Shown here: positions 850 to 35,762 of the stretch, piece by piece
Position numbering within the stretch: the stretch's first letter is position 1
Layout of the letters: every line of letters starts with the position of its first letter
Source of the DNA: Thermoproteota archaeon
GTDB lineage: Archaea > Asgardarchaeota > Jordiarchaeia > Jordiarchaeales > Freyrarchaeaceae
Length of the DNA stretch: 36,219 nt
NCBI GenBank assembly: GCA_029258835.1
Contig: JAPDJY010000009.1
Span: 1 to 36,219 of the forward strand
Direction of reading: 5' to 3'
Translations under genes and position numbers: made by a program
The notes under the pieces: model-generated
What the model saw: the letters and a program-made list of their open reading frames with translations, nothing else
Databases searched by the model: none
Told to the model about the DNA's origin: nothing

Positions 850-2238
850 TTACTTGGCAGCCACCCACGGGTACATTTCCTTAAGCTGGGCTATGGCTTC
901 CTTCACCTTCTCCGTTGGGTACTCGTAGGCTTGCAGCTGGCCATTGTTGTATGCATCGTACGCCTGCAGGTCGAAGAACCCGTGGCCGCAGAGCGGGAAG
1001 AATATCGTCTTCTCCTCGCCTGTCTCCCTACACCTGATAGCCTCGTCTACCACGGCCTTGATCGCGTGTGCGGGCTCCGGAGCCGTAAGCAACCCCTCAC
1101 TCTTAACGAAGAGTGTTGCAGCATCGAAGACCTCAACTTGATTGTAAGCCACAGCCTTCACGTGTCCCTCCACGTTGAGCAAGCACAGGGTTGGAGCCAT
1201 CCCATGGTAGCGTAAGCCTCCAGCGTGGATGGGTGGAGGTATGAACATGTGCCCGAGCGTGTGCATCTTCAGGAGCGGGGTTAGCCGTGCTGTGTCCCCG
1301 TGATCGTACATGTAGTAGCCCTTCGTCACCGTCGGGCATGCCTTAGGCTCAACAGCGACGAACTCGACGTCCTTAGGCGCCCTCCCTGAAACCTTATCAT
1401 AGTAGAACGGCCAGAACGTCCCCGAGAAGCTGCTGCCTCCTCCTATGCACCCTACGACCACGTCTGGGTAGTCGTCGACGAGCTCAAACTGCCTCTTAGC
1501 CTCCAACCCTATCACGGTTTGGTGAATTAGAACGTGGTTAAGCACGCTTCCGAGAGTGTACTTAGTGTTCTCACTGCTTAAAGCGTCCTCGATGGCTTCA
1601 CTTATCGCAACGCCTAGGCTTCCCGGGTTATCAGGGTCGCTTCTCAAGATGCGCCTGCCAAACTCCGTCCTCTCACTTGGACTCGGCAGCACCTCAGCCC
1701 CCCAGCACTCCATGAGGATCCTCCTATACGGCTTCTGCTGATAACTCACCTTAACCATGTAAACGGTCGCATCCATGCCGAACATCGCGCAGCCAAAGGC
1801 TAGGGCGGATCCCCACTGCCCGGCTCCGGTCTCGGTGGTGAGCCGCTCAACACCCTCCTTCATGTTGTAGTACGCCTGAGCCACGGCCGTGTTTGGCTTG
1901 TGGCTTCCCGGGGGGCTAACCCCCTCATACTTGAAGTATATTTTCGCCGGCGTCTTCAGGGCTCTCTCAAGGTTCACAGCCCTGTAAAGGGGGGTTGGCC
2001 TCCATATCCTGTACACCTCCCTCACTTCATCAGGTATCTTTATCCATCTCTCCTGGCTGACCTCCTGCCTCACAAGCTCCTTTGCGAATATCTGCTCCAG
2101 CGTACTTGGGTTTATAGGCTCCCCGTCGGGGCCTAAGGGTGGCGGAAGCGGCTTCGGCAAGTCGGGGAGTACGTTATACCATTGCTTGGGTATTTCCTCC
2201 TCTTCAAGCAAGATCTTCCTTTGTTGCACGTTTTCCAC
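850..2238 (-). CDS. trpB2: Tryptophan synthase beta-2 type (TrpB2) PLP enzyme
   Basis: Motifs [21 protein letters not shown] (PLP Lys), [26 protein letters not shown]; 462 aa. Confidence 0.95.
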
Positions 2239-2291
2239 CTTTCCCGCTGTGCATTCATCACGGCTTTTACGGACACAAGTATCTGTAAAGG

Positions 2292-2325
2292 TTAAATTTA
2301 AATCTTACGTGTACATAAATGTACA
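2292..2325. promoter_or_regulatory. Divergent trpB2/trpY promoter: AT box TTAAATTTAA (2292-2301) plus tandem TRP boxes TGTACA-TAAA-TGTACA (2310-2325)
   Basis: Read directly from the sequence. TGTACA is the TRP-box consensus of Methanothermobacter TrpY. Confidence 0.75.
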
Positions 2326-2336
2326 TGGTGGTGGGG

Positions 2337-2840
2337 ATGTGGAGTAGGATAGCAAGCTACTTCAAGGAGCACCCGAAAAGGTTAGCTGTAGCTAAAGTTC
2401 TCGTCGAGAACGGTCTAAGCATCAGAAACGGGAAGATTTATTGTAACGAGATCGAGATACCGCCGGTGAGGGTGGCTAGGGTTGCAGGGGTCGACCGGAG
2501 GACGGTGGTGGAAACGATCAAGATGATAGAGAGGGATAAGGAGCTGAGGACGATATTCACACTAATAAAGAACGCTGGAATGTCCCTTAAGGAGGTTGCA
2601 CGCCCACTCAACCTCGGGGTGGTCGAGATCACGCCCGATGACCCGAGAACCGTAGGAATAGTTGCAGGGGTGACCTCGATCATAGCCCGAGAAGGTATAA
2701 GCATCAGGCAAGCTCTAACAGATGACCCCGAGCTGAGCCCCGACCCAAAGCTAACAGTGATAGCAGACCGCAAAATCCCAGGGGAACTAATTCCGAAACT
2801 ACTAAAGGTGAAGGGAGTAGCTAAAGTTTCAATCTATTAA
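2337..2840 (+). CDS. trpY: TrpY-like regulator of amino acid metabolism (N-terminal HTH, C-terminal ACT; COG2150-like)
   Basis: VARVAGVDRRTV HTH and GISIRQA ACT domain. Divergent from trpB2 with TRP boxes. Start probably ATG 2337 after GGTGGTGGGG (ORF track gives 2319). Confidence 0.8.
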   Translation: MWSRIASYFKEHPKRLAVAKVLVENGLSIRNGKIYCNEIEIPPVRVARVAGVDRRTVVETIKMIERDKELRTIFTLIKNAGMSLKEVARPLNLGVVEITPDDPRTVGIVAGVTSIIAREGISIRQALTDDPELSPDPKLTVIADRKIPGELIPKLLKVKGVAKVSIY

Positions 2841-3089
2841 CGGGTAAGCGTAGGCTAGAAGAATTCTTAACAGGAGGCGTCTAGTGGAATTCCTGCCGGC
2901 ATTAAACCTGGGGTTGGGCTCCGGGAGGGAACTGGTTTCTTCCTTACTTACAGTGTTTACTCCTGCGGGGTGTTTTCATCCTCGACTTCGCATCTTCCTA
3001 TGGTGTGTGCTTCCCTCTCACCGTTCAAATGCCGCTTGCTCCCAGAAGCCTTATCTATTCTTTTCACCTAGTTAGTTTGGGGAGCTATT

Positions 3090-3605
3090 ATGGTGGGAGG
3101 GTTAAGCTGCCTGGCGGAGCCCTATAGAAGCGTGGTGAGAAGGGTTCTGGACCGCCTCCTCAGCTCCTTCGGCGACAGGCTTGTCAGCCTTGTCGTTTTC
3201 GGCTCGGTTGCCAGGGGGGACGCCAAGAGGGACAGCGACCTGGACCTCCTCGTGGTCATAGATGGGCTCCCAAGGTCTAGGTTTAAAAGGTTCGACGTTT
3301 TCATGGAGGCTTTGGGGGGAGAGTTCGAAGACTACCTTGACGAGCTGGTGGACAAGGGCTTCTACGTGAGCATATCCCCCGTGATAAAGGAGCCTGAGGA
3401 GGCCTCCAAGCCCTCCATCCTGTACTTGGACATGGTCGAGGACTCCGTGGTGGTTTATGATAGATGCGGCTTTTTCACGGGTGTGCTTGACAGGCTTAGG
3501 AGGAGGCTGGATGAGCTGGGGGCCGAAAGGGTCTGGGTGGGGAAGAAATGGTATTGGAGGCTGAAAAAAGGCTACAGGTTCGGCGAGGTCATCACGCTTG
3601 AATAA
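3090..3605 (+). CDS. Minimal nucleotidyltransferase (MNT) antitoxin
   Basis: FGSVARGD...DSDLDL motif; overlaps the HEPN gene by 8 nt. Confidence 0.9.
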   Translation: MVGGLSCLAEPYRSVVRRVLDRLLSSFGDRLVSLVVFGSVARGDAKRDSDLDLLVVIDGLPRSRFKRFDVFMEALGGEFEDYLDELVDKGFYVSISPVIKEPEEASKPSILYLDMVEDSVVVYDRCGFFTGVLDRLRRRLDELGAERVWVGKKWYWRLKKGYRFGEVITLE

Positions 3606-4041
3606 CCTGAAGCTGGCTGAGTCGAACATCAGGCAAGCCGAGGAAAGGCTGAAGCATGCAGGGGAAGCCCTCACCTCAGGCAACTACCCCTACACGGTGA
3701 GGCAGTGCCAAGAGGCGGTGGAGCTACTGTTAAAAGCGGCGTTGAGGATCGCCGGCATAGAGCCACCGAAGTGGCACGATGTTGGACCAATAATAAGGAG
3801 GGAGCTCGACAGGTTCCCGCAGCGCTTCCGCGACGAAGTAGACTTCATAGTGTCCGCTTCGAGGAGGCTGAGAAATGAGCGGGAAAGATCAATGTACGGC
3901 GATGAGGAAACAGGCTTGCCACCAGAAGAACTATACACTAGGCTCGACGCCGAACAAGCACTAAGCGACGCTTTAAAAATAAGAAGACTGGTTCTGGAAC
4001 TGCTCGGCGAAGCCGCCGGGGGGAGGAATGAATCCTCTTAG
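3598..4041 (+). CDS. HEPN-domain protein (MNT-HEPN toxin-antitoxin pair)
   Basis: CQEAVELLLKA, PPKWHD and RERSMYG motifs typical of archaeal HEPN. Confidence 0.9.
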   Translation: MNNLKLAESNIRQAEERLKHAGEALTSGNYPYTVRQCQEAVELLLKAALRIAGIEPPKWHDVGPIIRRELDRFPQRFRDEVDFIVSASRRLRNERERSMYGDEETGLPPEELYTRLDAEQALSDALKIRRLVLELLGEAAGGRNESS

Positions 4042-4086
4042 CGGTGCCAGCCGAGCAGTGAAATATGTAATCCTTGGAGGGGGTCG

Positions 4087-5739
4087 CTAGCTTAGGATTG
4101 CACCCGAGCTCGCCGACGACACTGCCTTCAAGTACCTTTTAAGGTATCCCCTCTTGGCGTGTTCAGGCGGATTCCAGCTCCATCTTCTCCTCCTATCCTC
4201 CAGCTCCTCCCCGGAGACGAGGAGGTCGATCCTTCTCCGTGGCAGGTCTATCCTCACCGTGTCGCCGTCCCTCGCCAGCGCTATGGGTCCGCCTTCAGCC
4301 GCCTCCGGGGATATGTGCCCAATGCATATCCCTCTTGTTGCGCCCGAGAAGCGTCCATCGGTGAGGAGAGCCACCTTTTCACCCATCCCCATACCAGACA
4401 CGGCCGCGGTGACGGCCAGCATCTCCCTCATCCCAGGTCCGCCACGCGGCCCCTCATACCTTATCACCAGTATGTCCCCCTCCTCAACCTTCCCTTCCAT
4501 GACTGCTTTCATGCACTCCTCCTCTCTGTCAAACACCTTGGCTGTCCCCTCCATCACCACGTCTTCATCCTTCAACCCTGAAAGCTTTATTACGCTTCCC
4601 TCAGGTGCAAGGCTACCCTTAAGTATCGCTATTGAACCATGCCCTCTAACCGGGCTGCTAGCCGGTCTTATTACGTCACGTCTCAGAACCTTCGCCCTCG
4701 CAGCGGAGTCCCTCAGCCTCCCATACACCGTCCTCGCGTCCAGGTCGAGGCGCTCGGATAGCTCGGAGAGGAGAGCTGGGACGCCTCCCGCCTCCTCCAA
4801 GTCCTCCATGGTGTGGCTTCCCCCGGGAGCCAGCGTGCAGAGCTGGGGTGTCGACCTGCTTACCTCCTCGAATACGTCGAGGCTCAGGCTTATCCCCGCC
4901 TCCGCAGCTATAGCCGGCAGGTGGAGGACTGTGTTGGTTGACCCGCCGAGGGCTACATCCACCGTTATGGCGTTCCTGAAGGCCTCCTCCCCCATCACCT
5001 CCCGCGGCTTAAGGTCCTCCTCCACGAGCTTGACAGCCACTCTACCGGTTTCTACGGCTATACGCTCCTTCTTGGCGGAGCATGCGTGTGCAGTAGCGCA
5101 TCCGGGAAGGGACATCCCCAGCGCCTCGGTCAGGCACGCCATGGTGTTAGCCGTGAACATGCCGTTACACGAGCCAGCCCCGGGGCAAGCCACGTCCTCC
5201 ATCTCCGCCAGCTCTTCTATGGTTAACTCGCCCTTCTCGCACCGCCCGACCGCCTCGAACATGCTTGCCACGCCCACCCTCTGACCCCTGTAAACCCCTG
5301 AGGGCATTGGCCCCCCCGTCAGGACAATCGATGGAATGTTCACCCTCGCCGCGGCCATCAGCATTCCAGGAGTTATCTTGTCGCAGTTGGTTATGAGGAC
5401 CATTCCGTCAAACCTGTGGGCTTCAACCACGAGCTCCACAGAGTCAGCTATCACATCCCTTGACGGGAGGGAGTAGCGCATCCCAGCGTGCCCCATCGCT
5501 ATCCCGTCACATATTGCTATGGTGTTGACCTCGAATGGAACCCCGCCCGCGCCGCTAACACCCATCTTGACGAGCTCGGCAAGCCTCCTCAAATGGACGT
5601 GCCCCGGGACGATCTCACTGTAGCTGTTAACCACCGCTATGAACGGCCTGTCAAATTCTTCATTAGTGACTCCAACTGCCTTAAGCAACGCCCTATGGGG
5701 CGCCCTCTCAACACCCCTCTTAACCTCATCACTCCTCAA
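4087..5739 (-). CDS. ilvD: Dihydroxy-acid dehydratase
   Basis: [42 protein letters not shown]. Likely TTG start at 5739 (MRSDEVK) rather than 5793. Confidence 0.96.
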
Positions 5740-26612: not shown

Positions 26613-27527
26613 TTAACTTCGGTTTTTCTTTGACGCTGATCGCTGATTTTTTATTTTCTCTGAAAGATATGTTCTCAGCTTTTTCACCTCTTTTTCTTTA
26701 ACCTGAATTATTATTTGATCGTTTTCTATAAGTCTTGCATTATAGTACCCTATTTTTTCTAGGATTACATCTTTTAGTTCTATATCTATTTCATATCCGA
26801 TGCTATTCCTCTCAAGCTGCCTAGCAACTTTTATAGTTGTTCCGCTTCCCAAGAAAGGGTCTAAAACTACTTCTCCCTTTAAAGTAAAAAGAGTTATGAT
26901 CCTTCGTGGAATTTCTTCTGGAAATGCCGCTATTCCTTGCTCCAGCCTTCCTTCTAAGGGAAGTACATTGGTTATTTCCCAAACTGAAAGATACCATTTC
27001 TCTGTTTGATACTTTTTTACATCTATTTTTGATCTTTCAAGTGTATCAGGGTTGGTTTTCTTAAAAAGTTTGTAGTCGAATTTTCCTTTTTGGAAAATGA
27101 GTATTTCTTCAAAGATATTGTCAGGGTAATAGTACATTGGGTAAGGATGTTGAAGCATAACGCCTGACCGTCTACTTATTCTTATATATCCCTCTGGTTT
27201 TTTCCAGATTATTTTATCTCTATATCTAAACCCTACTTCTCTCATTATTTTTGTTATGTCGGATGTTATGGGGTATAACTCGCCTTTTATTCTCACATCC
27301 TGCACTACAAAACATGCTATTCTACCTTCTGCCAAAACATCAATAAGCGCACTACCAACCGTTGAAATAAGGTCTAAGTATTCTTCATAACTGCTAAAAA
27401 GGCCGGGATAATCGAATGGCGCATTAAAGTAAGGGGGAGATGTAATCATTAATTGTACTGACTCTTTTTTTAGGTCATGCAACATGTTTCTGCAATCACC
27501 AAAAATGATCTTATGCCAAGTTGCCAT
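26613..27527 (-). CDS. Site-specific DNA methyltransferase, N4/N6 family, beta class (SPPY, probably m4C)
   Basis: ITSPPY (motif IV) precedes VLDPFLGSGTT (motif I); AT-rich. Confidence 0.92.
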   Translation of the reverse strand: MATWHKIIFGDCRNMLHDLKKESVQLMITSPPYFNAPFDYPGLFSSYEEYLDLISTVGSALIDVLAEGRIACFVVQDVRIKGELYPITSDITKIMREVGFRYRDKIIWKKPEGYIRISRRSGVMLQHPYPMYYYPDNIFEEILIFQKGKFDYKLFKKTNPDTLERSKIDVKKYQTEKWYLSVWEITNVLPLEGRLEQGIAAFPEEIPRRIITLFTLKGEVVLDPFLGSGTTIKVARQLERNSIGYEIDIELKDVILEKIGYYNARLIENDQIIIQVKEKEVKKLRTYLSEKIKNQRSASKKNRS

Positions 27528-27634
27528 CGTGCTCTCTCCATATTTTTCATTCAGTTTTAAATTTAAGAGAGAACCTATATAAACAAAACATCGCTCATCA
27601 ATATTTAATTTGCTAGGATCAAGAAAGTACGTGG

Positions 27635-28555
27635 GTGATAAGTTTGAGAGAAAAACAAGAAGGGCTTAGCGAGCAAGATAAAGCTTCGGCTTTAATGGTC
27701 CTTAAGGATTACGGGGAAAAACGGTGGTCTGAAAAATGGATGAGTCACATTTCTTTCCCGTCAACGATAGATGTCCTTAATGATAAGGAGGACGTATTAC
27801 GGTATATGCTTTTACGTGCTTTGATAAATCAGCAGGCTAAGGTCGAAAAGGCGAGGCAACTTCCTAAGAGGTTATATGAAGAATTTACTGAGACATTGCT
27901 TTATTCTCCGTGGGAAATTGATCCATACAGGCTTTTTGACATTTTAGTGGATGTTGCAGGAGAGAAAGGGTCAGACCTCTATAAAGTCGGTGCTCTTGGA
28001 GGAATAAAGCCGACGTCTCTTTTTCTTTATCGTTTTTACTCATTTACGCTTTACATAAAGACCTTAGGTAACATAAAGTTGTACAATATAATAAAGAACT
28101 TTAGTTCACCATATGGAATACACATGTACTTTAAAAATAACACATTTCTATCGGCTGGCTGAGTTGGAAATGACCCCAAAGCATGCAGGATGCTCGCAGA
28201 TTGGATAACATTCCTTTTCGAAGAAGTATGGAAGGAAAATGTAAAGTTTAAACTAAAAGACTCCTTAATGATAGTTGACGGTCATGTAGGAAAAGTTTTC
28301 TCTAGAAGTGGGCTAATAGAAAACGTTTACTACGAAAAGAAAAGACCTTATATAATTCAAGCAGCAAAAATGCGTAGTGAAATAGAAAGATTAGTTAAAC
28401 AATATAATTTCACGCCTTTTTATGTGGACAATGGCGCATTTTATCTTTTTGAAGACGGGTATTGCAACGAGTTAAACCCAAAATGTAACGAATGCCCCCT
28501 CACGATTTATTGTAAGAAGTATGTTAAATGGACAGCATATCAACAATTAAAATAA
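27635..28555 (+). CDS. Divergent HhH-GPD/Endonuclease III-superfamily DNA glycosylase with [4Fe-4S] motif, interrupted by an in-frame TGA at 28160-28162
   Basis: ORFs 27635..28162 and 28190..28555 are in the same frame (FLSAG*VGNDPKACRM). Motifs ALINQQA, G*VGNDPKA (HhH-like), IVDGHV and C-x6-C-x2-C-x5-C. Confidence 0.75.
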
Positions 28556-28719: not shown

Positions 28720-28988
28720 CGTTATTTTCCTTAAACTAACGCCCTTAAAGTAAGGATCGAGTTAAAGTAATTATTCTAGGATCATATTTTAATAACTTCA
28801 GAAAATCGCCATTGTTTACAAATCTCCTATTTGCAGTTCTTACACTTGTAAACTTGCTTCTTTCCACTCTTGCCATACTTGATAATATTTGGTGAACCAC
28901 AGAACTTGCAAACTATAGGCTCAGTCTCTTCTATCTCTTTTATTGCTCTCTTATTTTCGGGTTTTCCTAAGAGTGGTACAACTTCCAT
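28720..28988 (-). pseudogene. 5' remnant of an archaeal IS6-family (Zn-ribbon/HTH/DDE) transposase
   Basis: Manual translation from ATG 28988: ...CKFCGSPNIIKYGKSGKKQVYKCKNC / NRRFVNNGDFLKLLKYDPRIITL / LDPYFKGVSLRKIT. Two frameshifts; the DDE domain is missing. Confidence 0.7.
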
Positions 28989-28998
28989 GCCCAATATC

Positions 28999-29106: not shown

Positions 29107-29114
29107 GATTGAGA

Positions 29115-29297
29115 ATGGGTGAAATTACTGTGCTTACTAAAGCGACTTCAAGAAGTAAATCTTTAAGAACAACTATCCCTATGGGTATCGTAAAACAGTT
29201 CAACCTTTCAGAAGGGGATAAACTCAATTGGGAAATTAAAGCTGAAGGTGGAGAACTTATAATTGTGGTAAGACCATTAAAGAGGAGTGAAAAATAA
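29115..29297 (+). CDS. AbrB/MazE/SpoVT-family DNA-binding protein
   Basis: SKSLRTTIPMGIVKQFNLSEGDKLNW; GGTGA RBS before ATG 29115; stop overlaps the methyltransferase start (TAATG). Confidence 0.85.
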   Translation: MGEITVLTKATSRSKSLRTTIPMGIVKQFNLSEGDKLNWEIKAEGGELIIVVRPLKRSEK

Positions 29298-30208
29298 TGG
29301 TAAAAAGAACACGAACAAGTAGTTTTGGTGTTTCAGGGAGAATAAGCCACGACTCTACTCCTTTCTATTCGAGAAAGTTATATAGAAATAATAGACTTCC
29401 AAAAACAAAGCCAGAAGATCTTATCGAAAATAAAGTTCCAGCTGAATTTCTAGATAAGATAACATTGGGAGATGCACGTGATGTTCTTAAAAAGCTTCCG
29501 AGTAACTGTGTTCATCTGATGATTACTTCTCCACCGTATAATGTAGGAAAGGAATATGATGAAGATTTAACGCTTGGAGAATATCTTGATTTCATTGAAG
29601 AAGTTATGAGAGAAGTTTATAGAATGTTAGTTTGGGGAGGACGTGTCTGTTTTAATGTGGCTAATTTGGGTAGGAAACCGTACATACCTCTTCACGCGTA
29701 TCTTATAGAGAGATTCGAAAAAATAGGTTTTCTTTTTAGGGGAGAAATTATATGGGACAAGGGGGATGCTGTTGGTGGAGCATCAACAGCATGGGGAACA
29801 TGGAACTCTGCTGTAAACCCGGTTCTAAGAGATCAACATGAATATATTATCGTTCTATCTAAAGGTAGCTTTAAAAGAGAGAAAAAGGACAAAGTGGATA
29901 CTATCACGAGAGAGGAGTTCCTAGAATTCACAAAGAGTGTTTGGAGGTTTCCACCAGAATCAGCGAAAAAGATTGATCATCCAGCACCTTTCCCAGAAGA
30001 GCTACCATATAGATGCATACAACTATACACATTTAAAGGAGATGTGGTTCTAGATCCATTCGTAGGTTCTGGTACGACGTGTGTTGTCGCATTGAAGACG
30101 GGAAGACATTTCATAGGTATAGATATAGAAGAAAAATATGTGAAGATTGCTAGACAGAGAATAAAACAGATACTAGGCACAAAAAAACTTACAGAATATT
30201 TCCCTTAG
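29297..30208 (+). CDS. Site-specific DNA methyltransferase, beta class (SPPY, probably m4C), partner of the ThaI-like endonuclease
   Basis: ITSPPYNVG, HPAPFPEELP, VLDPFVGSGTT. Confidence 0.93.
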   Translation: MVKRTRTSSFGVSGRISHDSTPFYSRKLYRNNRLPKTKPEDLIENKVPAEFLDKITLGDARDVLKKLPSNCVHLMITSPPYNVGKEYDEDLTLGEYLDFIEEVMREVYRMLVWGGRVCFNVANLGRKPYIPLHAYLIERFEKIGFLFRGEIIWDKGDAVGGASTAWGTWNSAVNPVLRDQHEYIIVLSKGSFKREKKDKVDTITREEFLEFTKSVWRFPPESAKKIDHPAPFPEELPYRCIQLYTFKGDVVLDPFVGSGTTCVVALKTGRHFIGIDIEEKYVKIARQRIKQILGTKKLTEYFP

Positions 30209-30840
30209 CCTTCTAAAGCTAGCTTTTTCAACATGTTGTACCACATCTTCCAGTATTTTTCTCTGATAGCATTTATGTTGACATGTTGGTAGTTTATTGT
30301 TATAAAATTGCCTTTCTTTTCAGCTTTTTCTATTAAAGTCTTGATAGCAGTAGTATTAATCCCAAATCCCCTCGGATTAGTTTCACTTTTTGGTATCCAC
30401 CACATATCATCACCCATCTCCATTTTTAATTCTTCTAGATCATTTACCTCAAAAACATAAAGTGAGATCTTCATTTCCTTCCTATTTCCAGTCACATAGA
30501 GTATTGGATATTTAAACTTAAATTTTCGTGCTCTTTCTATTGATGGAAAACCATTCCATGCCACTTTTACAGTAGTAATGGTTTCTGTCGTCTTAAGACT
30601 ATACTTCTTTTCCTGTTCTCCGATCATTACAGAAAAGTCCCATTCTCGCTCCATAGGTGGTGCGGGCTTAACTTTTAACTTAAATTCTTCTTCTAACATA
30701 ACACGTATAACATGCTCTCTTCTTTTTCCAATATCTGGTGTACTTCCCTCAATATATAGTACTTCCCATATTCGTCCTAGTAAATCAAGAACCATTGGTT
30801 TCTTTTTCAGAAGTTGTATCAAGGGATCTATCTCCGTCAT
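30205..30840 (-). CDS. ThaI-family type II restriction endonuclease
   Basis: PDIGKRRE...EREWDF...YSLKT...VKVAW, a PD-(D/E)xK variant resembling ThaI; convergent with the methyltransferase (4 nt overlap). Confidence 0.72.
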   Translation of the reverse strand: MTEIDPLIQLLKKKPMVLDLLGRIWEVLYIEGSTPDIGKRREHVIRVMLEEEFKLKVKPAPPMEREWDFSVMIGEQEKKYSLKTTETITTVKVAWNGFPSIERARKFKFKYPILYVTGNRKEMKISLYVFEVNDLEELKMEMGDDMWWIPKSETNPRGFGINTTAIKTLIEKAEKKGNFITINYQHVNINAIREKYWKMWYNMLKKLALEG

Positions 30841-31112: not shown

Positions 31113-31877
31113 TTGTGTGACCTGCTTGGTTTATGCTTTTCAAGGTTTTACATGGCATCGAGGTCTTTACCCTTGTTCGCCGGTGCCGGTATGCGTAGAG
31201 GGGATATGGATGGGTGGGGTATCGGGTTCTACTTTCCTGATGGAAGCGCCCATGTTGAAAAGTGCGCTGAGGAGGCTTGGACCAGTGAGAAGTACCATGT
31301 GCTCGCCCGCGTAGTTAAGAGCAACGTTTTCATAGCTCACCTGAGACTTGCCTCTAGAGGAAGCGTGTGCGACGAGTTCTGCCACCCATTTAAGCTGCAT
31401 TTCCGAGGAAGAGACTGGCTCTTCGCCCATAACGGGGATTGCTCCGCGATAGTCAACTATAGAACTTCAGGTGAGAGAATACCTGGCGTTGAGGGGCAGG
31501 ACTCTCCCAGGATCTTCGAATTCCTCAGAGACCATATTTTAAGGTACTTGCAGCGGAATCGTAGGGGAAGCCTCATTGGAGCCGTCAAATGGGCTACGGA
31601 GAAACTATTCGAAGAATACCCTAATGGAACGTTTAACTTCCTGCTCACCAATGGAGACGTGCTATTCGCCCATGTAGACCGGAGGCACCCGTTAAACAAT
31701 AACTTATATGTCCTTAGAAGGGAGAAAGAGGATGAACTGGCGATTTTAGTAACCACCATAAACGGTTTAACAAGGGAAGCATGGACGAAATTCTTTCCGA
31801 TAAGAGGAAGAGGGAAACTGTTGGTGATGTCTGAGGGGGAACTGCTCTACAATATAGAGACGCAAACCTTTAGCTAA
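31113..31877 (+). CDS. Class II glutamine amidotransferase (YafJ/EgtC-like Ntn hydrolase)
   Basis: N-terminal MC, DGWGIG, IAHLRLAS, CHPF, FAHNG; GAGGAGGTG RBS. Confidence 0.88.
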   Translation: MCDLLGLCFSRFYMASRSLPLFAGAGMRRGDMDGWGIGFYFPDGSAHVEKCAEEAWTSEKYHVLARVVKSNVFIAHLRLASRGSVCDEFCHPFKLHFRGRDWLFAHNGDCSAIVNYRTSGERIPGVEGQDSPRIFEFLRDHILRYLQRNRRGSLIGAVKWATEKLFEEYPNGTFNFLLTNGDVLFAHVDRRHPLNNNLYVLRREKEDELAILVTTINGLTREAWTKFFPIRGRGKLLVMSEGELLYNIETQTFS

Positions 31878-32648
31878 TCCCTTTACCTCTCGTATTACTC
31901 CACTGTTTTCTGACCACGCTTTTAACTTCATCCAGTAGGGATAAAAGCTCGTTAAATGTCCCTTTGCCTCCAAGCTTCTCCCACATTTCCTCGCCTACGA
32001 GAACTTCCTCGTCGAAGTCAAATATTTGAAAGACAAAGGGATGAGCGTACTTTTGCCTGAAAACAAACGGGTTGTATGGGAATCCAATGAAAGCTTGGGC
32101 CTTTTCCCCCTCAAAGAATGCTCTAAAGTATAACATTTTCTTTTTTGTTTCAGCACAAACGTCTAAGTTTGGCCTAGGAGACTTAATTTCCATGAACAGA
32201 GGGCCTTCTTCATGATCTTCTATGAAGACATCAGCTATTATCGTCCTTTCAATCTCTTTTCCTCCCTTAACACTTTCTATCTCGCTAAGTTCCCTTTTAA
32301 TATTCGGCCTCCGCATACCCTGCCTCAGCTCGGTTACAATTTTCTCGATCATGTTGGCTTTCTCCTCGAGAATAACACCTTTTATTTCATAGTTAATGTG
32401 AACTTTACTGTAGCGGTCACATGCTATGATCTTAGCGACCTTGGGGTAGAGTTGCATGCCTAACCTTGTAACTATGCTCCTTTGCAACTTAAACGCAAAC
32501 AATGCATCGTCCGAAAAGAAAAGTGAATGAAATGGGAATGCCTTTGTAAATCATTAAGAGAGTACTCTACCTTCTTTTCACTTATTACCCTAGCAAAGTC
32601 GAGTATTTCTGCAATTATCGCCTTTTTTGTTTCCTCTTTCAAAACCAT
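31870..32648 (-). CDS. TdeIII-family type II restriction endonuclease, frameshifted at about 32543-32545
   Basis: ATG 32648 reads MVLKEETKKAII. One extra A gives DLQKAFPFHSLFFSDDALFAFKLQRSIVTRLG. Also IADVFI..EIKSPRPNLD and FPYNPF. Confidence 0.8.
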
Positions 32649-35105
32649 TCCTCCTCGAGAAAAGCAAAAGCTTCCGGTACATGTCCTTCGTTAAGTATTA
32701 CATTTTTACCTTTAATGGCAATCCTTCCTCTCTCTTTTAGCCTATACATTGATGTTCCATAGAAGTCGCATATTCTTTTTGCCAAATTTAAGCTTAGCTT
32801 TCTAAACGTCTTGGAGGCAACTTTCAGCAGCAACATTACTTTCTCATTCTTCTCCATTTTACTGATTTCTTCGATGGGATCTTTTTTATTTCTCTTTTTT
32901 GCCTCTATTCTTAAGAATGAAAGCAATCCTAGCACTATTCCTTTAGGTATTATTTCTCTTTCAAACACCGTTTCCTTGTTGTTAGCGTTTACGACCGTCA
33001 TTCTAGCTGTTGCGGCAACGGTAAGTGTTAGAGCCCTCTCAGAGTAGCTTATTTTTTCGGATGGAAAAATCTTCGCATTATTTAAAAACCTATAGACTCT
33101 TGAGCAAAAAGCGAAAATGTCCTTACTGAGGTCTCTTACCGGCTCTACATGCTTAGCGGCTACAAGGACGATCGTTCTGTTAAGCTTTGGCTCTCCATGC
33201 ATTGTTACACTTCGAGTAGGATGTTCCGATACGAAAGGGTAAGTCCAATAACTTTAAAGTTAGAGACATATACTGCATGTAGTATTGCTTCCCAAGCACT
33301 CCAAGATTTATGGGTAAACCATAATACAAGTTTACCATCTCTTTTTAAGGCAGAATAAGTATTACTAAGAAAAACCGTGAGGTTTCTCCTATATTTTTCG
33401 ATTTCCTTTTTTCCTCCTCCACGTCTAACTATCAACTCCTCGCTTCTTGGTACATAAGGTAGCGCTGGATTCCATCCAAGATGCTTCCACCCTTCGATTC
33501 CTCCGACTTTCTCTGTGAAAAGATACCTTCCAAAGTTGTTTTTTAGGCACCTCCTTAAGGTAACCCAGAAAAATTCGCTGAAATCACTGTAGATATGTTG
33601 ATCAAAGTATGGTGGGTCAACATTTACTACGTCTATAAACTCCGACCCTAACATATGTATTTTTTTAGCATCAAACTGGAAAACGTTCACTTCAGTTTTG
33701 ACTGCTCTCATCTGCTTACATAATTCATGTAATATGGGGCATATCCCTCCTCCAGTACTCTTCTCTTCCACACCCGGCTCAAACGCCCATAAAAGGTTCT
33801 TATAAGGGACCACCGCTTCACAGTAGCTAATATTTACTCCAACTTTACGGGACCTTGCATATTGACCGATTGTATCTCTTATACTTTTATTTGAAAAATT
33901 CCACGTAGTAAGTATCGTATTAAAATCCACCATTTTGCTTAAACCAAACCCTAAGTAAGTGTGATGGCTGCGCCAAGCTCTCCTTCCCTTAAGATAAGCT
34001 CTTCTCCTCGCTCTGCAACGTATCTAGTTAAAAATCCGAGAGCCAACAATTGTCGTGGGTTAAAAATATGATGCCACAACTTTAACCCGCAAGATGTTAT
34101 AGGACAGAAAACATCATTCATCAACGGTATTTCGTCTAATGGAAGGAATTCTTTTAACTCTGATGAATGCCCTGCCAAGGCAGAGCACGCCCTTATGAAA
34201 AGCTTTTCGTCTTTTCTTTCTGCAGGTTGGTATGAACCATCATCCTTCTTTAACGCTAAAATCGGATGTACATCTAAAAGATGTTCTGGGCTTACTTCGC
34301 CTCCTGAAAGGAGAGCTGAGAGAAGTTCAACATGCCTTTTACCCCATTCTGATAAGAGTTTACGCTCATCCACCATAAATTTAACACCGCAACGGCTGCA
34401 CAAGACCTTAATTGTTCCCTTCTCTTTTTTAACGATCACCGCTAAGTCCCCTAGAAAGCTGAAGTCTACAGGCGAGAGAGATAACCTTCTACCACACGTT
34501 GGGCAGGTTACATGTTTGGTAAATATGTAAGCGTCATCACCTATCCCATAAAAGTTTCCCAATATGTTTTGGGCATATTTTATAAGTTTTCTTGCCTCTT
34601 CTTCAACCATTTCTCCCAACTTTTCCTTAAATTTTAAAGGGTAGTCAATGGCTCCTTTTAAAATCAGGTAGGCAACTGGATTATAGTCGAAAGCTATTGT
34701 CTTTAAACCTAAAAGAGTACTTTCTAAGGGAATAGATCCTCCTCCAGCCATTGGGTCACATAAGACAGCGTCTAAACCTAGTTGTTTAGGGTTCATGAAC
34801 GACATTAAAGGAGGATAGCCTTTACTAGGCAGTGTACGCAGTTCATTCACGTCAAAGAGGCTTACTACTTCTGACGGGGAAATAATGTTATTAAATGCTA
34901 GCAATATGCTAAGTCTGGATGCTGACCTGGGGCGTCTTGCAATCCAAGGATGGAGACTCCTAAGTTTAGGGTCGTAAAACGTTTTTAGCGGCTCAACCGA
35001 TAGCTCTTTACATCTGACAATGTAAGACGACCTGGGCTTATAACTCATCTCTAAGGCAGCATCCCTGTTAACTTCATTGAAGATTCTAAGAATTTCTTCT
35101 TCCAT
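32639..35105 (-). CDS. DUF1156-family adenine DNA methyltransferase with Zn ribbon (about 820 aa), split by two one-base frameshifts (about 33957 and 33241)
   Basis: LHPWIARRP, DPMAGGGSIPLE, CPTCG/CSRCG, FNPRQLL, VDPPY. Adding one T at each junction gives GAAITLYLGFGLSKMVDFN and GLYPFVSEHPTRSVTMHGEPK. Confidence 0.82.
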
Positions 35106-35762
35106 TAACACCCCTCTCTGAGAGGAAACCCTATATGAAGTTAAGTTTAAAAACCCTTATATTATCCCCTATTCTGCAAGTAAACTAGCCTTTACACCCT
35201 TTTTAGGCTTTCTTTAATGTTCGGCCTTCACAAGATCTGCCCGACCACCATACTTTTTAAATTTCCCCTCATTGGTTCAGAGCAAGAGCAGAAGCAAGAT
35301 CAGCGGCCTATCACCTTACAGCTTCTCCATAGATTTTGGCCAGCCCTCCGCTTCTTATGACTGGAAATCTTTCATCCCAATTTAACTTGCATATCCATGT
35401 TTTCTACATTAATCTTGTGGCGTTCAAAATATGCTCCGGAAATCACGGTGCTGAATTGCTCTAATAGCCCGGATTTAGCCTTTGCTTACGTCGAAGCCGT
35501 CAACCTTAGAAGGCTCTGGTATACTGGCTGTCATCTCCTGAAGAAGGGGCTTTAAGGCTTTGGCAGTTGGCGTGGCTGAAGGATGCGCGCTTGGACATCG
35601 GTAAGTGCTGTGCCAGTTACACCCTCCTGTTTCATCCGGTGGAGTTGCTCTTCCCCTTTAAAGCACCGTATAAGGTAGATTACGGTGAAATGGTCTTAGC
35701 CATCCTAACTTAGGAGAAAGATTTTATTTTTTGCGTAGTAACTTTATATAGAGGTGTTAACG

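Follow-up and report, generated by a model that had tools for sequence, protein, structure and literature searches.

Why should a protein built like a DNA repair glycosylase be encoded beside a DNA methyltransferase, in the place where a restriction endonuclease (REase) would be expected? The question is raised by a gene pair on contig JAPDJY010000009.1 of a jordiarchaeial genome (Asgardarchaeota; GenBank assembly GCA_029258835.1), of which positions 1 to 36,219 were analyzed as one stretch, here called the window. The pair consists of an intact amino-methyltransferase gene (M) and, head to head with it, a frame (X) that is interrupted by one in-frame TGA; its coordinates and anatomy (Table 1) agree with those given in an earlier reading of the sequence alone. 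That sequence-only reading took X for a restriction enzyme that works by base excision, i.e., a sequence-specific glycosylase and apurinic/apyrimidinic (AP) lyase that is blocked by cognate methylation. To our knowledge, characterized restriction enzymes cut phosphodiester bonds, the sole exception being the PabI family, which has a fold of its own. Our analyses support the proposal as far as comparative genomics allows, through linkage and position, with gene decay and the avoidance of a candidate site pointing in the same direction. We put at roughly 60% the probability that X is a GGCC-directed, methylation-blocked restriction glycosylase/AP-lyase, in which case base-excision restriction would be carried out here on a different, repair-derived fold. 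X probably represents a second kind of restriction enzyme that acts by removing bases, unrelated to the first.

The strongest evidence that X is a restriction partner is that it can be exchanged for other such partners. Metagenome contigs were scanned with the methylase alone, and the 80 best loci (56 to 69% identical to the window M) were kept. The neighbor of M was X in 25 of the 80 loci, a protein family of ~315 amino acids (Y) in 20, and a family of ~353 amino acids (Z) in 13, while in 24 loci it was none of these or the contig was too short; L094 and L095 have X as well as Y and so enter both of these counts. Both Y and Z are matched by PADLOC Type II REase models (REase_II, E = 1e-11 for Y; REase_II, PDLC03572, E = 1e-96 for Z), and Z has a candidate ExK motif, IEGKH, which was read by eye and could belong to a PD-(D/E)xK site. 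On the methylase tree, the X, Y, and Z partners interleave, and branches with a Shimodaira-Hasegawa-like approximate likelihood ratio (SH-aLRT) support of at least 95% force at least seven changes for X. For example, M proteins that are 92%, 89%, and 89% identical carry Z versus X, Z versus X, and X versus Y, respectively. Since near-identical methylases are found with either X or Type II REases, X sits in the position of an ordinary REase, next to methylases whose specificity must be the same.

The association between X and M also holds across a wide range of hosts. A survey in which one genome per species was scanned returned 35 X loci from more than 10 bacterial and archaeal phyla, mostly in metagenome-assembled genomes (MAGs) of thermophiles. 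Wherever these species loci include upstream DNA, an M ortholog (55 to 60% identity) lies directly upstream of X on the same strand, and over all informative loci the adjoining M orthologs are 55 to 69% identical to the window M. The window pair is divergent, an order that is shared by near-identical assemblies, and in most other genomes the two genes are codirectional with overlapping stop and start codons. In relatives of the window genome, M likewise stands beside X, in convergent or X-then-M order, and the same two orders are found in a distant X subclade (31 to 35% identity) that adjoins the same methylase clade. The co-occurrence that the sequence-only reading had anticipated was therefore seen in every locus with enough DNA, in four gene arrangements, and no X homolog at such a locus was without an adjacent orthologous M. 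Nor is another endonuclease a regular companion of the pair: the module has no further conserved nuclease, and conservation across X loci does not extend to a third gene, the other clusters being antisense open reading frames (ORFs) inside M or X or genes of three to six related genomes.

In addition, M and X have been inherited together. Pairwise X-X and M-M distances are correlated (r = 0.75; Mantel P = 2e-4), and X diverges much faster, with 31% identity versus 60 to 64% for M. Faster divergence of the restriction gene than of its methylase is typical of restriction-modification (R-M) systems. The two genes are AT-rich, as had been claimed from the sequence, with a GC content of 33 to 37% in the M-X region compared to 50 to 57% in the flanking genes and ~49% in the whole genome. 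They are patchily distributed among 40 relatives of the window genome and recur in more than 10 phyla of Bacteria and Archaea at ~50% identity. On the basis of this composition, patchiness, and spread over phyla, M-X is a mobile two-gene module.

What kind of protein, then, holds the restriction position? Read through its stop codon, X is without a match among the nuclease families of Pfam, NCBIfam, and PADLOC, in line with the earlier remark that it has no recognizable nuclease motif. Its scores against glycosylase-related models fall below the curated cutoffs: 17.5 versus 26.2 bits for PF00730 (E = 0.005), 14.9 versus 20.5 bits for PF10576, the Fe-S model of endonuclease III (EndoIII; E = 0.03), and 21.7 versus 286.5 bits for the NCBIfam model mutY (E = 1e-4). 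A sequence search of the PDB with the X family profile gave a match over the Fe-S loop only (E = 0.2 to 2). An AlphaFold (AF2) model of X from 38 homologs, with a predicted local distance difference test (pLDDT) score of 91 and a predicted template modeling (pTM) score of 0.90, has a predicted two-domain, all-helical fold that is superposable on EndoIII. When this model was compared with the PDB by Foldseek, all of the top 50 matches were HhH-GPD glycosylases, as expected from the EndoIII-type fold that had been proposed. X thus belongs to the HhH-GPD superfamily as a distant member, which is clear by fold and profile alignment only, not by sequence score.

The series of EndoIII motifs that had been read in order along X is real. 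An hhalign comparison of the X profile with the Nth protein of the same genome extends over 210 columns. In it, K182 is matched to the lyase Lys of Nth and D215 to its catalytic Asp, and four Cys coincide with the Fe-S loop; the placement of K182 and D215 is that of a profile alignment and not of superposed coordinates. K182 is invariant, including in relatives that are only 27 to 32% identical, and at least 90% of sequences keep D215, a few members having Asn instead. G216 is invariant throughout, while H217 is invariant in the core family and kept in at least 90% of the wider set. The four loop cysteines are also invariant and align with the Fe-S loops of EndoIII, MutY, ROS1, and Mig; the distant X subclade has a longer Cys-rich insert at this loop. 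Two further motifs, LINQQA and LYKVGALGGIKP, coincide with conserved Nth motifs. Some details of the sequence-only reading did not survive this comparison. An insertion in the helix-hairpin-helix (HhH) hairpin is not needed to place the lyase Lys in the alignment with Nth. X is indeed longer than EndoIII, with four family-specific additions (the N-terminal ~50 residues, residues ~134 to 170, residues 199 to 209, and a conserved hairpin at residues ~229 to 245), but LYKVGALGGIKP, which had been counted among the extra segments, is the conserved GLYxxKAxxIK motif of Nth and no insertion. Beyond the classical pocket, many further charged residues are invariant in X, including E52, R56, K125, R133, E234, R237, and D265.

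These features define a family of ~185 homologs with a length of ~313 amino acids. A HMMER scan of 1.84 billion representative proteins returned 50 that match X, and none of them is a housekeeping Nth, MutY, or Mig. Together with the subthreshold Pfam HhH-GPD score, this speaks against X being nested within the housekeeping Nth or Mig clades, and the X family appears to be closed, without a bridge to them. Four ordinary HhH-GPD genes are found elsewhere in the same genome. A search for X in fused or longer forms came up empty, a result that carries little weight, and no relatives of X were found in plasmid and phage collections.

The manner in which the pair decays bears on the role of X. Among the species loci, which are few in number and lie on MAG contigs, both genes are intact in 18 and both are disrupted in 1; X alone is disrupted in 7 (the window included) and M alone in 1 (L009, with a frameshifted M on a contig of 4x coverage). 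The lesions in X are stops, frameshifts, or internal deletions, and several loci have deletions or multiple frameshifts. Decay of X before M would fit the asymmetry that is predicted for a toxic restriction gene, which is the opposite of that predicted for a harmless repair accessory. The state of the window, with X broken and M intact, is the usual fate of a restriction gene.

In the window, X is disrupted by a single substitution. The Trp that is lost at codon 176 is present in all 38 aligned X homologs, and the codon is TGG in five of five independent, near-identical assemblies, whose M-X pair is 99.8% identical to that of the window. The change from G to A is the sole difference inside X from these five assemblies, in which the flanks differ by 1.3 to 1.7%. 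Recoding of TGA, or its use for selenocysteine, was considered and rejected, given the TGG in the five assemblies and the fact that TGA terminates ordinary genes of the window. Furthermore, a search for a second, intact copy of X in the same genome found none. Taken together, the TGG in the five assemblies, the ordinary TGA stops, and the lack of a second copy lead us to regard the window copy as a nonsense pseudogene of very recent origin, or possibly as an error in the consensus. Because this copy is inactivated, the intact natural alleles are the ones to be used in experiments. A separate observation concerns the history of the module. Between positions 26613 and 29197, which comprise M-X and the DNA just downstream, the window differs from loci L046 to L050 at 3 positions in ~2.5 kb, whereas the thiolase-side flank and the remaining island are 1.3 to 1.7% divergent from the same loci, which suggests a recent sweep or transfer of the M-X module among closely related strains.

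The exchange of partners also points to the site at which the module may act. All of the X-partnered M proteins that were inspected (21 of 21) contain SPPY, the motif typical of N4-cytosine methyltransferases. Among 14 control genomes, the PADLOC model for Z matches only Sulfolobus acidocaldarius, and a methylome study of this organism concludes that it has SuaI/M.SuaI (GGCC, modified as GGm4CC) as its only R-M system (PMC5809426). Given the match of Z to S. acidocaldarius, the standing of SuaI as the sole R-M system there, and the SPPY motif, GGCC is the predicted site. Z is probably of the SuaI family, as judged from the control-genome match and the paper rather than from a direct alignment, and M-X would hence probably have GGCC as its site and N4-methylcytosine (m4C) as its modification, M being a predicted m4C methylase for GGCC like M.SuaI. 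Patterns of site avoidance are in keeping with this assignment. GGCC has the lowest observed/expected ratio (O/E) of all 256 tetranucleotides in the window genome (0.60), and no tetranucleotide is avoided more strongly in the flanks of the X, the Y, or the Z loci, each set taken separately (O/E of 0.54, 0.59, and 0.38, respectively). This avoidance fits a GGCC system, with hosts of X behaving like hosts of REases. As an observation in its own right, three loci of Fervidibacter/Armatimonadota (L019, L021, and L024) display extreme avoidance of 4-bp palindromes: in 10.9 kb of DNA at 54 to 57% GC, none of GGCC, CTAG, ACGT, and GTAC occurs even once, while GCCG is found 54 to 58 times.

We envision the following mechanism. 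M-X would be a mobile, Type II-like R-M module in which the restriction enzyme is a diverged protein of the EndoIII fold and no phosphodiesterase. M would methylate GGCC at N4 of cytosine, as M.SuaI does, and X would recognize unmethylated GGCC and flip a base into its HhH-GPD pocket, where the pair of Asp215 and Lys182 would cleave the glycosidic bond. The resulting abasic site would probably be nicked by beta-elimination through a Schiff base on Lys182, a Lys at this position being the mark of bifunctional members of the superfamily. Attack on both strands of the palindrome would lead to a DNA break with ends that are hard to religate, while an N4-methyl group on the target base would block X.

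Several observations weigh against this mechanism. The glycosylase chemistry that we infer for X derives from its fold and conserved residues only, its sequence specificity and methyl sensitivity are likewise predictions, and we know of no HhH-GPD repair enzyme that reads a 4-bp sequence. Several members found in nature (P0121, P0137, L074, and L076) have Asn in place of Asp215 while keeping M as their partner, which is awkward for a strictly Asp-dependent mechanism. The copy of X in the window itself carries a nonsense codon, and at L009 (4x coverage) an intact X lies beside a frameshifted M. Moreover, X is not always the sole candidate effector: L095 (positions 1117 to 4430) carries Y, X, and M together, all apparently intact, and in L094 a Y-M pair is flanked by remnants of X, next to a 414-amino-acid ORF. 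These two loci may be snapshots of one restriction gene replacing another. The predicted site has its own difficulties. The step from Z to SuaI combines a control-genome match with a paper in place of a direct alignment, and in the flanks of 15 intact genome loci GGCC ranks only third, with CTAG and ACGT being more depleted, and avoidance in these hosts extends to many palindromes. Avoidance of GGCC is common in thermophiles, and avoidance alone neither fixes the site nor proves restriction by X.

An argument can be made that X is instead a repair glycosylase, similar to Vsr or Mig, that travels with an orphan methylase and fixes lesions at the methylated site, such as the U:G mismatch left by deaminated m4C. 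Such an enzyme would be nontoxic and would take no part in restriction. The gene vsr travels with dcm in just this way, and L095, where X, Y, and M are all intact, keeps the idea alive. However, M is an SPPY amino-methyltransferase and not a 5-methylcytosine (m5C) enzyme, and the product of m4C deamination is uracil, which is handled by general uracil glycosylases. X also replaces the REase instead of being added to it, since Y is also present in only one or two of 27 X loci and since X is otherwise absent from Y and Z loci. The asymmetry of decay is the opposite of that expected for a harmless repair gene, and GGCC avoidance in hosts of X equals that in hosts of REases. Finally, X has Lys at the HhH position, where Mig has Tyr126 (PMC9945173). 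We therefore regard a repair role as improbable.

It is also conceivable that the scaffold of X only finds or binds the site. X could then use another cleavage chemistry, or it could be a noncatalytic sensor or regulator, such as a dead EndoIII domain or a C protein, and it would still be a partner in the restriction position or a controller. This receives some encouragement from END nucleases, in which an EndoIII domain that is catalytically dead serves as the sensor (PMC12191111), from the members of the X family with Asn in place of Asp215, and from the many invariant charged residues outside the classical pocket. Yet K182 is invariant and D215 is kept in at least 90% of members, both at catalytic positions. 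X has no fused nuclease domain, no conserved partner nuclease, and no match to a nuclease family, and a strongly constrained Fe-S protein of 313 amino acids is unlike the small C-protein regulators, such that we give a purely site-binding role only a slim chance. The sequence-only reading had itself offered another option, an antiviral glycosylase acting on modified foreign bases in the manner of Type IV systems, to which may be added a nucleoside or nucleotide hydrolase like DUF2419/Qng1; in either case, the link to M would be incidental to residence in a defense island. We do not favor this option and consider it very unlikely. X is linked to one methylase clade and not to islands generally, and the linkage persists among unrelated flanks and four gene orders, often with overlapping stop and start codons. 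In addition, X and M codiverge, X keeps the Fe-S DNA-binding loop that is absent from DUF2419, and no phage or plasmid copies of X were found.

The interpretation of X as a restriction glycosylase can be placed among known systems. In its proposed logic, X resembles R.PabI, R.HpyAXII, and R.CcoLI, the HALFPIPE enzymes, in which an unmethylated base is excised in a palindrome, followed by AP-lyase action, and in which the reaction is blocked by a cognate amino-methyltransferase. Both the PabI family and X occur in thermophilic archaea, are mobile, and are accompanied by avoidance of the recognition site, which for X is the predicted GGCC (PMC10273834, PMC4357717). They differ in that the PabI family has the HALFPIPE fold and acts at GTAC with N6-methyladenine (m6A), whereas X is an HhH-GPD protein with a [4Fe-4S] loop and a predicted GGCC/m4C specificity. 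The possibility that X is a member of the HALFPIPE family was rejected given its HhH-GPD fold, so that the likeness is in proposed function only. A 2023 review treats PabI as the only family of restriction glycosylases and never mentions HhH or EndoIII (PMC10273834), and among the papers available to us, we found none on an HhH-GPD protein as the restriction partner of a methylase.

Other comparisons are with enzymes that share the fold or the methylase. Relative to Nth and the Fe-S HhH-GPD repair enzymes MutY, Mig, and ROS1/DME, X is ~100 residues longer through its four family-specific additions, and its gene is confined to mobile, AT-rich modules, where it adjoins a single methylase clade. 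Like X, Mig.MthI, Vsr, and the iEndoIII of END nucleases are HhH-GPD or EndoIII-like proteins that are encoded with methylases or in defense systems. However, Mig goes with m5C methylases as an addition to an R-M pair and carries Tyr where the lyase Lys would be, whereas X has an amino-methyltransferase as its partner, replaces the REase, and has an invariant Lys182. The iEndoIII domain has lost its catalytic residues and is fused to a PLD nuclease (PMC12191111), while X is a stand-alone protein of ~313 amino acids that retains both Lys and Asp. On the side of the methylase, the relevant system is SuaI/M.SuaI, reached through Z. The methylases belong to the same clade, with the window M being 60% identical to Z-partnered M and with X- and Z-partnered M reaching 92% identity, and both systems are two-gene modules of thermophiles with the same probable site. 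It is the restriction partner that differs, Z being a PADLOC Type II REase of ~353 amino acids and X an HhH-GPD protein.

Table 1. Features of the M-X locus and of the neighboring modules in the window
Feature	Position	Strand	Remarks
M, beta-class N4/N6 amino-DNA-methyltransferase	26613-27527	minus	304 amino acids, intact; SPPY at motif IV; PF01555, E = 3e-44; PADLOC MTase_II, E = 7e-74
M-X spacer	27528-27634	divergent	107 bp, read from the sequence; presumably holds both promoters
X, HhH-GPD/[4Fe-4S]-type protein	27635-28555	plus	306 codons with a single in-frame TGA
HhH region of X	28148-28228	plus	residues ~172-198; includes K182 (28178-28180), aligned with the Nth lyase Lys (hhalign)
In-frame TGA of X, codon 176	28160-28162	plus	replaces an invariant Trp (TGG); single G-to-A change at 28162
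D215 codon of X	28277-28279	plus	motif IVDGHVGK; aligned with the catalytic Asp of Nth/MutY (hhalign)
Cys-x6-Cys-x2-Cys-x5-Cys loop of X	28463-28513	plus	C277, C284, C287, C293; EndoIII-type [4Fe-4S] cluster motif
55-amino-acid ORF	28827-28994	minus	CxxC...CxxC zinc-ribbon pattern; between first and second modules
AbrB/MazE-like gene	29109-29297		62 amino acids; second R-M module
Methylase M2	29297-30208		second R-M module; PF01555, E = 2e-50
REase of the M2 module	30205-30840	convergent	PADLOC REase_II, E = 2e-46; Pfam ThaI just at cutoff
Class II glutamine amidotransferase, EgtC-like	31113-31877		PF13230, E = 3e-32; between two R-M modules
TdeIII/HinfI-family REase	31870-32502		third module (31870-35111); N-terminal ~45-65 residues apparently missing
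Parts of a large DUF1156/HmaB-type methylase	32639-33202, 33205-33933, 33951-35111		third module; three consecutive ORFs

M-X is one of three R-M modules in this part of the window, and the methylases of the other two each have a REase of their own, as had been noted from the sequence. CGCG, the site of ThaI, comes second in avoidance among the tetranucleotides of the window genome (O/E of 0.71), and this avoidance fits the ThaI-like module that adjoins M-X. In the third module, the methylase looks fragmented in the window genome, since the same stretch is a single ORF of at least 822 amino acids in assemblies L048 and L049. The most avoided tetramers also include GACC, GGTC, and GGAC, a hint of a GGWCC-type site. 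The amidotransferase gene is kept in near-identical assemblies. The zinc-ribbon ORF, which has a 53-amino-acid counterpart in other assemblies, may be a regulator or a transposase remnant. At the borders of the island, we found no tRNA genes and no convincing terminal repeats.

More distant relatives of X were observed in a different setting. In four metagenome loci (L039 to L042, the loci of P0153/P0155), X-like proteins of 296 to 399 amino acids are 29% identical to X and keep the Lys and a DG(H/T) motif, with a longer Cys-rich insert. The gene cluster is conserved and has the order TGT-family gene, 287-amino-acid TGT-like gene, X-like gene, and a gene for a 573-amino-acid DpdA (PADLOC, E = 7e-82) that is fused to a DUF6884/DpdC-like domain, and BrxC/D-like ATPases and a PLD gene lie nearby. 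The arrangement resembles a 7-deazaguanine DNA-modification system in which one component is of the HhH-GPD type. A broader proposal would be that the EndoIII scaffold has been recruited to serve as an effector in modification-based immunity. The core family would be a GGCC-directed, m4C-blocked restriction glycosylase/AP-lyase, a second independent class of such enzymes, and the relatives in L039 to L042 would be effectors against DNA that lacks 7-deazaguanine. We regard this extension as tentative and, on balance, doubtful.

The exchange of partners beside M supplies both a concrete predicted site, GGCC/m4C, and natural alleles that are intact, and the proposal is therefore open to a direct test. 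If it holds true, the enzymatic toolbox would gain a thermostable, sequence-specific DNA glycosylase that depends on an Fe-S cluster and is independent of metal ions. Several hundred methylases that appear as orphans in thermophile metagenomes would be explained. More generally, restriction by base excision would have evolved at least twice, here from EndoIII, a universal enzyme of base excision repair, and a glycosylase that recognizes damage would have come to read a 4-bp sequence in undamaged DNA.

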